A stretch of 59,973 nt of DNA, from assembly GCA_040384565.1 (NCBI GenBank), contig JAZKJC010000011.1:1-59973 (forward strand). The letters run 5' to 3'. Below are positions 11,498 through 53,992 of this stretch, in pieces. How positions within the stretch are numbered: position 1 is the stretch's first letter; each line of letters begins with the position of its first letter. The translations under genes and the position numbers were made by a program. The DNA comes from Patescibacteria group bacterium (GTDB taxonomy: Bacteria; Patescibacteriota; Saccharimonadia; Saccharimonadales; JAZKJC01). Under the pieces are notes generated by a model that was not told the origin of the DNA, ran no database searches, and saw nothing but the letters and a program-made list of their open reading frames with translations.

Positions 11498-11589
11498 TTT
11501 CTACTCCTATAGCTAATTTATTTTTATTTTAGTAACTATTTATGTTTCTGTCAATATTATTTCACATAATCTGTGGTACTCTAGAGCTT

Positions 11590-12840
11590 ATGACACAATC
11601 AATTGCCGTTTTGGGACGACAGCCCGCTCTAGGTATAGCCGAGCTGGAAAGCCTGTATGGAGCGGAAAAACTACACCCACTTGGCGATCAGGCCGCCCTA
11701 ATAGATATTGACCCAGCAGAAATATCTTTTAGCAGATTAGGCGGCACAATCAAACTTGCCCGGCTGGTAACCATAATTGACAGCACCGATTGGAAGCAAG
11801 TCGAGCAGCATCTGTCTGAAAGCGCAGCCAAACACAGCACTTTTTTGCCAGATGGCAAAATGAGCTTTGGGCTAAGTGTGTATGGGCTGGATGTGAGCCC
11901 TGCCCGCATTAATGCCACCGCTTTAAGCGTCAAAAAACTCATCAAAGCCACCGGACGTCCGGTGCGGGTAGTGCCCAACAAAACGCCAGACTTATCAAGC
12001 GCGCAAGTGCTGCATAATGGCCTGAATGGCGAGAGAGCCTGGGAATTATTATTTATCCGGCACGGTCAGCAAACATATATGGCCCAAACTACAAACGTAC
12101 AGGATATAACCGCCTACGCCGCCCGCGATCAAGCTCGCCCAAAGCGTGATGCCCGGGTCGGCATGCTGCCACCTAAGCTGGCACAAATCATTATCAACTT
12201 GGCTGTCGGCCAGGTTGAGGAGAACGAAGAACGGAGAACGGAGAATGGAGAAGTCGGAACTGTAGCTGTTCGTCATTCCTCATTCCTCGTTCCTCGTTCG
12301 TTGACAGTGCTTGATCCGTTTTGTGGGACGGGGGTTGTGCTGCAGGAGGCGCTGTTGATGGGGTACAAAACTTATGGTACTGACCTAGAACCCAGGATGG
12401 TCGAATACTCCAAGACAAATCTTGACTGGCTTTCTACCGTCTACCGTCTACCGTCTACCGTCTACAACCTTGAAGCCGCCGATGCAACCAATCACAAATG
12501 GGATCGTTTTGATACAATTGCCGCAGAAGCTTACCTGGGCCGTGCCTTTTCCGCCCTGCCCCGCCCTGAAATTCTGCGGGAAGTTATGAGTGATGTTAAT
12601 GCGATTATCAAAATGTTCCTGCAAAATGTCACCCGCCAAACCAGCCCGGGCTTTAGGATGTGCATTGCCGTTCCTGCCTGGAAGACTGCTCACAGCTTTG
12701 CACATCTGAAACTACTTGATAATCTGACAGATTTGGGGTATACTCGGGCGGTATTTACTCATGTGGCTAGTGCGGAGCTGATCTATCACAGACCAGAACA
12801 AATCGTCGCCCGTGAATTAGTAGTGCTGGTTCGAAAATGA
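11590..12840 (+). CDS. TRM11/TrmG10-like RNA methyltransferase carrying two heptamer-repeat segments
   Basis: RDQARPKRDARVGMLPPKLAQI, LDPFCGTGVVLQEA; start MTQSIA. Confidence 0.85.
   Translation: MTQSIAVLGRQPALGIAELESLYGAEKLHPLGDQAALIDIDPAEISFSRLGGTIKLARLVTIIDSTDWKQVEQHLSESAAKHSTFLPDGKMSFGLSVYGLDVSPARINATALSVKKLIKATGRPVRVVPNKTPDLSSAQVLHNGLNGERAWELLFIRHGQQTYMAQTTNVQDITAYAARDQARPKRDARVGMLPPKLAQIIINLAVGQVEENEERRTENGEVGTVAVRHSSFLVPRSLTVLDPFCGTGVVLQEALLMGYKTYGTDLEPRMVEYSKTNLDWLSTVYRLPSTVYNLEAADATNHKWDRFDTIAAEAYLGRAFSALPRPEILREVMSDVNAIIKMFLQNVTRQTSPGFRMCIAVPAWKTAHSFAHLKLLDNLTDLGYTRAVFTHVASAELIYHRPEQIVARELVVLVRK
12220..12300. repeat. in-frame inverted heptamer element
   Basis: (GAGAACG)-type x5 then (TTCCTCG)-type x4.5; encodes ENEERRTENGE...RHSSFLVPRS. 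Confidence 0.9.
12433..12465. repeat. in-frame heptamer tandem repeat (TCTACCG)x4+
   Basis: Four perfect units plus TCTAC; encodes STVYRLPSTVY. Confidence 0.95.
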
Positions 12841-51354: not shown

Positions 51355-51705
51355 ATGAAACAAGGTATTCACCCAGCTAGCTATCGCCCGGTTGTGTTTC
51401 AGGATCTTAATGACAACACGACTTTTTTGACGCAGTCTACTGTGGCTACTGATGACACTATCAAGCTTGACGGCAAAGAATACCCTTTGGTTAAGGTCCA
51501 TATCTCCAGCGCATCTCATCCTTTCTTTACCGGCCAGGAGAAATTGATGGACATTGAAGGCCGGGTTGATAAGTTCAAAGCCCGCCAAGAAGCTGCCAAA
51601 AACCGCGCCGAAGCCATGAAAAAGGCAGCCACCAAAACTCGCACCAAAGCCCCTAAGGCCGAAGAAGCGCAGAAAATTGGTAGCCTTAAACCAGGCAGAA
51701 AATAG
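51355..51705 (+). CDS. rpmE: 50S ribosomal protein L31 type B (Zn-independent) with basic C-terminal tail
   Basis: MKQGIHP..YRPVVFQD, ISSASHPFFTG, GRVDKF; no CxxC. Confidence 0.95.
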   Translation: MKQGIHPASYRPVVFQDLNDNTTFLTQSTVATDDTIKLDGKEYPLVKVHISSASHPFFTGQEKLMDIEGRVDKFKARQEAAKNRAEAMKKAATKTRTKAPKAEEAQKIGSLKPGRK

Positions 51706-51778
51706 TCAACAGTCTACACCTGACAGTAAACTGACAAACAAAAGCTCACTGTTAACTGTCGACTGTTAACTGTAAACT
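51704..51778. repeat. heptamer-period hairpin (AGTCAAC/CTGTTAA family) between rpmE and prfA
   Basis: AGTCAAC AGTCTAC... mirrored by CTGTTAA CTGTCGA CTGTTAA CTGTAAA. Confidence 0.8.
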
Positions 51779-52840
51779 ATGCATATGGATCAGAAAGAAC
51801 AAGCACTACGAGCTGAATACGAGGAACTGCAAGCTAAACTGCAGAACCCCAGTATTTTTAGTGATCCGGGATATCCTAAACTCGCCAAGCGTCAGAAGGA
51901 GCTTGAAGAAACGCTTAGATTGTTTGGCGATGTTAGGCTATTAAATAAAGAGCTTAGTGAAGCCTCAGAACTGGCTCATGGCAATGATGAAATGGCTGAA
52001 CTAGCCAAAACTGAAGTTACTGACCTTGCAGCCAAGCTATCAGCTATCAGCTATCAGCTATCAGCACTTCTTACGCCAAAAGATCCCAATGATGAGCGGG
52101 ACGTTATCGTCGAGATCCGGGCTGGGGCCGGTGGCGATGAGGCCAGTTTGTTTGCGGGAGAGTTATACCGCATGTATGTACGCTGGACGGAAACTCATAG
52201 CTACAAAACCGAACTTATTAGCGAAAGCCCCTCGGAATCTGGCGGTTTTAAAGAAATTATTTTTGCCATCCGTGGCATTGACGCATATCGTAATTTGAAG
52301 TTTGAAGCCGGCGTCCACCGCGTCCAACGTGTCCCTGTTACCGAAAGCCAAGGACGAATACATACCAGCACAGTTACTGTAGCCGCCATGCCGGAAGCCG
52401 AGGAAACTGATATTGAAATTAAAGATTCAGATTTGCGCATAGATGTATTCCGCTCTGGCGGGCACGGTGGCCAATCTGTTAACACTACTGATTCTGCAGT
52501 CCGGATTACTCACCTGCCCTCTGGCCTGGTTGTAGCTAATCAGGATGAAAAGTCGCAGATCAAGAATAAAGCCAAAGCTATGAGCGTCTTGAGATCGCGT
52601 TTGCTACAAGTCAAACTGGACCAAGAAGCCAGCCGCTTAAGTGACGCACGCAAAAAACTGATCGGCACAGGTGACCGCTCAGAAAAAATCCGCACCTATA
52701 ACTTCCCCCAGGACCGCATTACCGACCACCGCATCGGCTACAGCCGCAGCAACATCCCCGCCGCCTTGAACGGCGAAATAGACGACTTAATAGAACAACT
52801 ACACACTGCCGAACACGAACTGATCAGTCAAGACAGCTGA
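51779..52840 (+). CDS. prfA: peptide chain release factor 1
   Basis: [33 protein letters not shown]. Confidence 0.97.
52035..52065. repeat. in-frame heptamer tandem repeat (AGCTATC)x4+ in prfA
   Basis: Four perfect units plus AGC; encodes LSAISYQLS. Confidence 0.95.
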
Positions 52841-52864
52841 TTTTTGTGCTATGATTTACGTACT

Positions 52865-53107
52865 ATGGCTCAGGACGGATTTACAAAATTGTTCAAATAC
52901 ATCGAGGACCGATTTGATAAGGTTGATGTAAAGTTTGATAAACAAAACAAAAAAATCGATGATCTGTCGGCAGCTGTTGGGGAGTTAGGAGCTCAACTAC
53001 GAGAATACCATCAGGAAATGGTTTTCCTGACACACAAAGTCGACCGTATGGAGCGCTGGATCCATGAAATTGCCAAACAAACTGGCGTAAAATTATCTGA
53101 AGCATAA
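52865..53107 (+). CDS. small coiled-coil protein (FTKLFKY...KQTG family)
   Basis: Paralogue of 1317..1565; start MAQDGFTKLFKY. Confidence 0.75.
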   Translation: MAQDGFTKLFKYIEDRFDKVDVKFDKQNKKIDDLSAAVGELGAQLREYHQEMVFLTHKVDRMERWIHEIAKQTGVKLSEA

Positions 53108-53116
53108 GTTAATACT

Positions 53117-53992
53117 TTGAGAGTTCAAGAATTCTTAAAATCATCAGAGCAGCGGTTGGCAGCGGCTGGGATTGCCACCGCGCGCTTAGATTGCCTGGTT
53201 CTACTTGAAGACGCCACAGGTAAAGATCGCTCCTGGCTGATTGCCCATCCAGAATACCTGTTACAAGGCCCGGCCTTGAACATATTGAATGCACAAGTTC
53301 AACGACGCGAGAAGCATGAGCCGCTGGCTTACGTCCGCGGCAAAAGCGAGTTCTACGGCCGTGAGTTTAAAGTCAGCAAAGACACCCTGGAACCACGCCC
53401 CGAAACCGAGACAATGATAGACCTTTTAAAAGAGTTAATTCACAAATCACAAAAACCCTCCCTGTTAAAGGACAGACCTTTAACAGATGGAGGAAATGTG
53501 AATTGGCATATTGTGGATGTGGGGTCGGGGTCGGGGTGTTTGGGGATTACGGCTAAGTTGGAGCTTCCAGGTGCAACAGTCCTCGCTACTGACATCAGCT
53601 CTAGTTGCATAAAAATTGCTAAGCAAAATGCAAAAACACTTGGAGCAGATGTTAATTTTTACCAAGGCGACCTTTTGCAGCCCCTACCGTCTACCGTCTA
53701 CCGTCTACCTACTACCCTGCTCGCCAACCTGCCCTACGTTCCAGACAGTCACACCATCAACCAGGCCGCCATGTTTGAGCCCAAAATCGCAATTTTTGGA
53801 GGCGAAGATGGCCTGGATTTATACCGACAGCTCTTTCGACAAATTGCAAAAATTTCGCAAAAGCCAGCGTATATATTTACTGAGTCCCTGCCATTTCAGC
53901 ATGAAGCTTTGGCCCAGATTGCGAAAAACGTTGGTTATAAGCAGATCTTAGCTGAAGATTTTATTCTGTGCTTTCAAAATTCTGGTAGCTAG
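53117..53992 (+). CDS. prmC: release factor glutamine methyltransferase
   Basis: HEPLAY, PRPETE, DVGSGSG, ANLPY, GGEDGL; TTG start. Confidence 0.93.
   Translation: MRVQEFLKSSEQRLAAAGIATARLDCLVLLEDATGKDRSWLIAHPEYLLQGPALNILNAQVQRREKHEPLAYVRGKSEFYGREFKVSKDTLEPRPETETMIDLLKELIHKSQKPSLLKDRPLTDGGNVNWHIVDVGSGSGCLGITAKLELPGATVLATDISSSCIKIAKQNAKTLGADVNFYQGDLLQPLPSTVYRLPTTLLANLPYVPDSHTINQAAMFEPKIAIFGGEDGLDLYRQLFRQIAKISQKPAYIFTESLPFQHEALAQIAKNVGYKQILAEDFILCFQNSGS
53457..53493. repeat. in-frame AAGG-N5-CCTT palindrome in prmC
   Basis: Perfect 10-bp stem CTGTTAAAGG-ACAGA-CCTTTAACAG; related CAAGG-CCCGG-CCTTG at 53264-53278. Confidence 0.75.
53684..53716. repeat. in-frame heptamer tandem repeat (CTACCGT)x3+ in prmC
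   Basis: Same unit as 12433-12465; encodes LPSTVYRLPTT. Confidence 0.93.

Follow-up and report, generated by a model that had tools for sequence, protein, structure and literature searches.

Short heptanucleotide repeats seem to rewrite, rather than lengthen, part of a release factor 1 helix in a Saccharibacteria-type bacterium

In a Patescibacteria group bacterium, a stretch of a helix in peptide chain release factor 1 (RF1) seems to be rewritten by short DNA repeats rather than lengthened. The case in question is a perfect heptamer array within prfA, located on a DNA stretch of 59,973 nucleotides (GenBank assembly GCA_040384565.1, contig JAZKJC010000011.1, forward strand), which is called the window here and whose coordinates are used throughout. 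The array, (AGCTATC)x4.4 at 52035-52065 (+), comprises 31 nt without any mismatch (Tandem Repeats Finder, TRF: 100% matches, score 62) and encodes RF1 residues 86-96; it is confirmed to be perfect, in frame and length-neutral. In our best reading, it is the local expression of a genome-wide heptamer process in some Saccharibacteria-type lineages. The features concerned are the following:

51779..52840, + strand: prfA, peptide chain release factor 1, 353 amino acids (aa), single copy in the genome
52035..52065, + strand: heptamer array, perfect (AGCTATC)x4.4, 31 nt, in frame, 24/24 period-7 matches
52034..52066, + strand: RF1 codons 86-96, called the slot, 7-periodic in 5/144 RF1 genes, in the C-terminal half of domain 1 helix 71-98

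Judged by its sequence, the open reading frame (ORF) 51779-52840 is the bacterial class-I release factor RF1 (PrfA). It contains the Pfam domains PCRF (PF03462, residues 11-201, E 1.5e-67) and RF-1 (PF00472, residues 209-318, E 4e-41), and among solved chains it matches RF1 best (E 1e-106), RF2 reaching only 5e-58. The translation includes GGHGGQSVN and RVPVTESQ, which we take to carry the GGQ motif and, as PVT, the RF1-type P-x-T motif. The genome studied (G000; G, L and C numbers are our handles for genomes, loci and contigs) comprises 1.26 Mb in 27 contigs with 45% G+C, and the sources of the proteins nearest to its RF1 are labelled Saccharibacteria or Patescibacteria. Since it encodes one RF1 and one RF2 and uses TAG as stop in 231 of 770 long ORFs, RF1 is probably needed in this organism.

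An AlphaFold model of RF1, built on 35 homologues and evaluated by DSSP, shows a single domain-1 helix over residues 71-98. The mean predicted local distance difference test score (pLDDT) of the model is 72.4, with block means of 87-88 for residues 71-90 and 73 for residues 91-100. In 120 homologues, the best RF1 matches from a set of 5.8 billion clustered proteins, the slot is number 14 among 343 windows by variability, and the top two stretches begin at residues 49-54 and 80-85. Within the slot, L94 has an entropy of 0.07 bits and is invariant in the 35-sequence alignment.

The original prediction, made from the DNA letters, had described four AGCTATC units in frame in prfA, a segment of 32 residues from EM to PKD and no net insertion. 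Sequence, TRF and ORF translation agree on the array, the 32 residues were counted in the translation, and the same landmarks are 32 residues apart in the RF1 of Thermus, which aligns gap-free at the slot. In solved RF1 chains of 360 residues, positions 6-346 of the query pair with 8-348 of the chain, i.e. in equal spans. No indel was detected in the slot of 29/29 order-level relatives (28/28 without the unpublished genome G032), nor in any of 144 RF1 coding sequences. The 41-residue stretch around the slot has 40, 41 and 42 residues in 5, 89 and 26 of the 120 homologues, respectively, and this single-residue difference is located in the loop upstream of EMAEL and not in the slot. No RF1 orthologue shorter by 7 aa or any multiple was found among the 29 relatives, the 120 homologues, the 144 coding sequences and Thermus, in line with the absence of a net insertion.

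The 144 coding sequences, obtained from 154 loci of order-level genomes and metagenome contigs, were scanned over their full length in windows of 31 nt, each scored by its period-7 matches out of 24. Only six windows are strong, defined as at least 19/24, and five of these lie exactly on residues 86-96:

G000 slot: unit AGCTATC, 24/24
G121 slot: unit ACTACAA, 24/24, peptide ELQTTNYKLQTLL
G130 slot: unit AGCTCTC, 22/24, peptide KLSALSSKLSALL
G082 slot: AGCTATC-AGCTATC-AGCTCCC-AGCTCTC, a hybrid of AGCTATC and AGCTCTC, 21/24, peptide KLSAISSQLSALL
L076 slot (metagenome locus): CAGCTCT-type unit, 20/24, peptide QLSALGSQLSALL

The sixth is an AAATCAG array at RF1 residues 51-61 of G082, and the slot of a further genome, G203, scores 16/24. 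All slot units put CTN (Leu) on residues 87 and 94, no indel occurs in any of these arrays, and each array-bearing lineage has 4.4-5 units. In G082, one position of the unit reads A,A,C,C in blocks, and one of the changes is a synonymous Leu change. The remaining orthologous slots are mostly non-repetitive, with 1-11 of 24 period-7 matches, and a peptide of the form K-LSA[IL]S[SY]QLSA-LL is common among the relatives of G000.

The periodicity of the slot is a property of the DNA beyond the needs of the peptide. As a null, we drew 200,000 random synonymous encodings per lineage, using its own peptide and its own codon usage. For G000, none of them reaches 24/24 (mean 10.1, maximum 23). The observed score is likewise reached by 0 encodings for G130, 8 for G082, 52 for L076 and 556 for G203; for G017, 33,200 encodings reach the observed 11/24, which is not above the null. 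Outside the slot, identity at four-fold sites between G000 and its relatives is 0.29-0.47, with saturation at about 0.28. These sites being nearly saturated, a perfect or near-perfect array is not simply inherited without renewal.

G017 deserves attention, as it carries the slot peptide KLSAINTQLSALL with non-repetitive codons (11/24). The original prediction had named the same peptide with non-repetitive codons as a sign against overwriting. We read this slot as a probable decayed array, because 31 of the 120 homologues fit the three-frame translation of a heptamer at 8 or more of the 11 slot residues, compared to 3 of 1,687 windows taken from these proteins as controls, and because four more lineages are 7-periodic. 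Such peptides, that of G017 included, can be regarded as putative fossils of arrays. Of the local overwriting initially proposed, the length neutrality and the non-repetitive state of most orthologous segments (1-11/24) hold; a single conversion confined to G000 does not, as the slot peptide is widespread.

The periodicity of the slot also climbs with the heptamer load of the genome, given below as period-7 TRF rows per 100 kb for six genomes, and the order is monotonic at the top:

G121: 30.1 (246 kb fetched), slot 24/24
G000: 16.0 (whole genome), slot 24/24
G130: 11.4 (394 kb fetched), slot 22/24
G082: 4.3 (257 kb fetched), slot 21/24
G009: 2.2 (604 kb fetched), slot 7/24
G017: 1.7 (354 kb fetched), slot 11/24

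In G000, period 7 stands out from its neighbours. Perfect tandem arrays of at least three copies number 33 for period 7, 2 each for periods 5 and 6, and none for period 8. Among the TRF rows, 201/634 have period 7, compared to 39 with period 6 and 38 with period 8, and within the window the share is 20/43. When perfect period-7 runs are sorted by length, 16 fall into a shoulder at 28-33 nt and 13 into the range of 21-27 nt; the longest runs of period 6 and period 8 do not exceed 23 nt and 19 nt, respectively. The heptamer units are varied, yet they recur: four more AGCTATC-type arrays of 19-39 nt occur on contigs C3, C7, C9 and C20, and one of these four is in frame within a conserved GTPase-like ORF. 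With at least three head-to-tail copies and a genome-wide period-7 excess, the prfA array agrees in these respects with the heptanucleotide long simple sequence repeats (SSRs) known from bacteria. The unit of the prfA array was also observed as TATCAGC x5.3 at C7:282-318, within the reading frame of a conserved ORF whose orthologue in G009 is 82% identical; compared to the latter, MNYQ----GYELNLIDTPGH, there is a net gain of 4 aa, which is not a whole number of units.

A second length-neutral case is presented by the RF2 gene of G121 (L224:1663-2772). Here an array at 1973-2008, ATATCAG x3 followed by ATCTCAG-ATCTC, is in frame, encodes the peptide EKISDIRYQISDL and lies close to the end of the domain-1 helix matching that of the RF1 slot. 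The net length change is 0 against each of G000, G009, G130 and G017 (4/4), whose orthologous DNA is non-periodic (5, 5, 5 and 11 of 32, respectively), and at one unit position the array reads A,A,A,C,C in blocks. GatA of G121 contains one array of net 0 and another of +2 to +3 aa, which it has in common with G082. Of the in-ORF arrays of G000 that are alignable to G009, 7 of 20 are of net 0 (5/19 with a different comparison window). The other 13 amount to +1, +1, +3, +4, +5, +5, +10, +13, +13, +15, +17, +21 and +21 aa, none of these changes being 7 or 14 aa.

How could an array arise at unchanged length? As a 7-nt repeat read in three frames is a 7-residue repeat, which fits an amphipathic helix, the RF1 slot can host such an array. 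In frame, only steps of three units (21 nt) are viable, and therefore unit 1 can be made equal to unit 4 but never to unit 2. On this ground the earlier statement that ordinary slippage does not predict the array holds. The identity of neighbouring units therefore calls either for transfer between units at constant number or for a birth of several units in one event with exact restoration of length. We see about an even chance that the array was made or maintained through copying from unit to unit with a register shift of 7 nt, while selection purged changes of length and frame. The heptamer process would act on the least constrained stretch of the RF1 helix, and short templated copying between mispaired units may keep the array perfect, possibly by transient slipped misalignment, by template switching followed by realignment or by repair of a slipped heteroduplex. 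Such copying would pass sequence to the neighbouring unit and leave the number of units constant. Selection would eliminate shifts of frame (one or two units more or less) as well as changes of helix length (three units, i.e. 7 aa, more or less), and a unit would be tolerated only if it supplies CTN (Leu) at the conserved heptad positions and is free of stop codons in all three frames. We prefer this explanation because no allele of plus or minus 7 aa was seen in any homologue, because two genomes often have length-neutral arrays in their conserved genes, because net gains at other arrays do not come in multiples of 7 aa, and because two hybrid arrays, in G082 and in RF2 of G121, have the variant in adjacent units; their blockwise variants would fit a spread from one unit to the next.

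A stutter followed by compensation is the rival that has to be taken most seriously, and we consider it possible, though doubtful. A seed of 1.4-2 units would gain three units (21 nt, 7 aa) at once and a later deletion of 21 nt would restore the length; in a variant of this scheme, a contraction by three units is followed by re-expansion. An array renewed in this manner would be perfect each time, and its intermediates would be hidden by selection on length. The 4.4-5 units in all lineages equal a seed plus three units, the shoulder of perfect runs at 28-33 nt agrees with this, many other in-ORF arrays are net insertions relative to G009, and polymerase slippage on 7-nt units has been proposed for heptanucleotide repeats (Mrazek et al. 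2007, as reported in the accessible part of PMC4679880). However, in a single-copy RF1 this demands either a pair of exact events in frame or the viability of an allele of plus or minus 7 aa, and such an allele is absent from the 29 relatives, the 120 homologues and the 144 coding sequences. Apart from one paired insert of 21 aa, no other array shows a net gain by a multiple of 7 aa either, and steps of three units cannot carry a variant to the adjacent unit, yet G082 and RF2 of G121 are blockwise. A dedicated length-preserving process, which writes 7-periodic patches of about 30 nt over existing sequence in some Saccharibacteria-type lineages, appears unlikely to us. It could work by fixed-length gap filling, with a 7-nt template copied reiteratively, or else through an activity tied to two gene families, Y1-transposase and Cas2-like (PaaX_M). 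If true, it would supply essential proteins with new helix sequences by way of three-frame heptamer translation.

Overwriting of the slot by recombination with an array at another genomic site that has the same unit is, in our view, very improbable. Candidate donors exist in the four other AGCTATC-type arrays, and a slot before conversion would match the array at about 22/31 bases, as that of G017 does; but inspection by eye shows no similarity between the flanks of the five arrays, a stretch of 31 nt with about 70% identity would be a poor recombination substrate, and the lineage-specific units of G130, G082 and G121 are left unexplained. Selection on the periodic nucleic acid itself, e.g. 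as a binding site of a heptamer-binding protein or as a translational pause, is a similarly slim prospect. It would account for a DNA periodicity above the needs of the protein in several lineages, but the units differ between lineages (AGCTATC, AGCTCTC, ACTACAA), so that no common motif is conserved, and the periodicity is missing in most relatives. Furthermore, the array has no inverted partner, as 0/4 inverted pairs in 51650-52350 touch 52035-52065, and its RNA fold is not unusual (z = -0.01; 91/200 shuffles fold at least as well). Coincidence, i.e. an ordinary heptad-like peptide whose codons happen to line up, can practically be dismissed: the LSA....LSA peptide is 7-aa periodic and alone lifts the mean to 10.1/24, but the absence of 24/24 among the 200,000 synonymous draws effectively refutes this, and the genome-wide period-7 excess and the four further lineages with periodic slots speak against it as well.

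Several points weigh against out-of-register copying. The evidence for the templated 7-nt rewriting named in the original prediction is indirect, consisting of uniform units specific to each lineage, hybrid arrays and a periodicity beyond the needs of the peptide, and no close ancestor-descendant pair was found: the nearest RF1 proteins among the 5.8 billion clustered proteins are at most 83% identical, with no sequence of the same species, and the best locus in a metagenome scan (80 loci kept) is 74% identical over the whole protein. Two public runs of a single study contain the stretch, one of them possibly being its source, but their Logan contigs break within the prfA array and are uninformative on unit number; in run X1 the contigs on either side end at 52064 and begin at 52036, respectively, and in run X2 none spans the array. 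Perfect arrays are equally explicable as young products of a multi-unit stutter, and the relation of load and slot is based on six related genomes and is not a test. In the available portions of the literature, the known mechanisms of templated mutation are documented for inverted, not for direct repeats. Many supports in the RF1 tree are below 0.8, and its topology shifts on removal of the slot columns: with the slot, G000 joins the array-bearing clade of G130 and G082, and without it G000 joins the array-free G047 (slot QKIEADQNLNAAI) with support 0.93. Because the topology depends on the slot columns, gains and losses of the array cannot be counted. We claim neither a single old array with concerted evolution nor several origins; both require length-neutral rewriting. 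Missing mismatch repair was considered as a cause of the array distribution and rejected. MutS_V and MutL (DNA_mis_repair) domains were found in 0/5 genomes (G000, G009, G130, G121 and G082; 91-100% complete), whereas identical searches succeed in 11/14 control genomes; since they were not found in the heptamer-poor G009 either, this does not discriminate between the lineages.

Further heptamer-built features were detected in the window:

51704..51778, + strand: rpmE-prfA spacer, heptamer-built imperfect hairpin with arms 51704-51732 and 51743-51771 (29 nt, 76% complementary)
53684..53709, + strand: prmC array (CTACCGT)x3.7, in frame in prmC 53117-53992, reading PSTVYRLPT
12433..12465, + strand: perfect (TCTACCG)x4.7 array, in frame in the methyltransferase-domain ORF 11536-12837

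An ACTGTTA x4.4 array in the rpmE-prfA spacer runs up to the ATG of prfA. The array in prmC is of the insertion type, its segment having 24 aa compared to a mode of 20 in 52 sequences; at this position G130 has CTGACCG and CTATCCG units and G047 reads LPSTTYHLP. The TCTACCG array in ORF 11536-12837 is length-neutral relative to G009 (STVYRLPSTVY vs VEKFRLAPTNY) and amounts to +4 aa relative to G130. This ORF holds three heptamer arrays within 12219-12465 (GGAGAAC, TTCCTCA and TCTACCG x4.7), the last of which has its unit in common with the prmC array. Between prfA and prmC, an ORF of 87 aa (52844-53107) begins 4 nt past the prfA stop and gives a weak, sub-threshold match to DUF1664 (E 6.6e-4, 20.2 bits vs a cut-off of 34.6).

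As for gene families, the copy numbers of Y1_Tnp (PF01797) and of the Cas2-like PaaX_M (PF20803) go up with heptamer load, which we regard as a lead. Y1_Tnp is found in 9 copies in G000 (contigs C1, C3, C13, C15, C23 and C24), 3 in G121, 1 each in G130 and G082 and none in G017 and G009, and has matches in 109/401 genomes of the order. PaaX_M has 4 copies in G000 (C4:55866-56090, C5:78736-78972, C8:25248-25469 and C27:17982-18212), 3 in G121, 1 in G130 and none in G082, G017 and G009, with matches in 91/401 genomes. A strong period-7 array in the RF1 locus of about 4 kb was observed in 6/13 Y1-positive and 3/40 Y1-negative relatives (Fisher p = 0.004), in a post hoc comparison of 53 relatives that are kin and not independent, three of which had served to choose the Y1 family. 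The order-wide tallies include the unpublished genomes G032, G262, G280, G307, G340, G342 and G352, and no claim depends on one of them alone. A post hoc gene-content screen on partial genomes, likewise a lead only, gave 10 ORFs that G121 and G130 have, and G009 and G017 lack, in the sequence fetched.

Comparison with known systems, as far as the accessible portions of the cited papers go, shows what is shared and what is not. Heptameric repeats are over-represented in many bacteria, with about four units preferred, and under-represented in coding sequence (PMC4692102); polymerase slippage on about 7 nt has been put forward (Mrazek et al. 2007), and repeats within genes are mostly multiples of three (PMC4679880). 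Examples are the tandem heptamers of cyanobacteria, GGGNATC of Xanthomonas and Nostoc, and TAACTGA of Beggiatoaceae (PMC4679880, PMC4692102). These long SSRs resemble the arrays of G000 in the 7-nt unit, the genome-wide excess over neighbouring periods, the sporadic distribution and the number of about four units. As described in those portions, however, they lie mainly between genes, whereas G000 has many different units, in frame in translation factors and at unchanged length, and the RF1 case recurs at one slot across lineages and in a paralogue. Template switching evens out imperfect inverted repeats at constant length (PMC8604942, PMC8794818, PMC5453318) and, as a quasi-palindrome mutagenesis, is alike in its clustered multi-base changes from a nearby template, its length neutrality and the perfecting of an imperfect repeat. 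In the cases presented there, the partners are the arms of a hairpin; in RF1 the copying would have to start from a direct repeat at a distance of 7 nt. Palindromic inserts with heptamer arms, as in the rpmE-prfA spacer, are likewise made of 7-nt units, but the prfA array is without an inverted partner and of net 0.

Phase-variable contingency loci (PMC2651432) also have a slippage-prone repeat inside or beside a gene, but in the parts accessible they switch non-essential surface genes by unit number, whereas prfA has constant length and encodes a single-copy release factor. The frame-switch behaviour of a contingency locus is not seen in prfA, given its equal length in homologues, its single copy and the use of TAG. 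For Borg elements, the repeat units within genes are reportedly divisible by three. Borg tandem repeats are similar in being recent, located in genes and making new peptide segments; according to the portion available, they originate independently and add sequence in the form of new disordered regions (PMC9879509). No published account of such arrays in Saccharibacteria was among the literature matches listed. The length-neutral in-frame form is new here, as are its recurrence in RF1 and RF2 at one slot and the peptide fossils.

Heptanucleotide repeats have long been noticed, are unexplained and were regarded as mainly intergenic, and here they are found within RF1, RF2 and GatA at unchanged length. 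Heptamer rewriting would explain why the slot belongs to the most variable RF1 stretches in these bacteria. It presents a concrete and testable case of repeat-driven, length-neutral turnover of protein sequence, with putative fossils in a quarter of the nearest homologues, and a natural system for asking if templated copying homogenises direct repeats as it does inverted ones.

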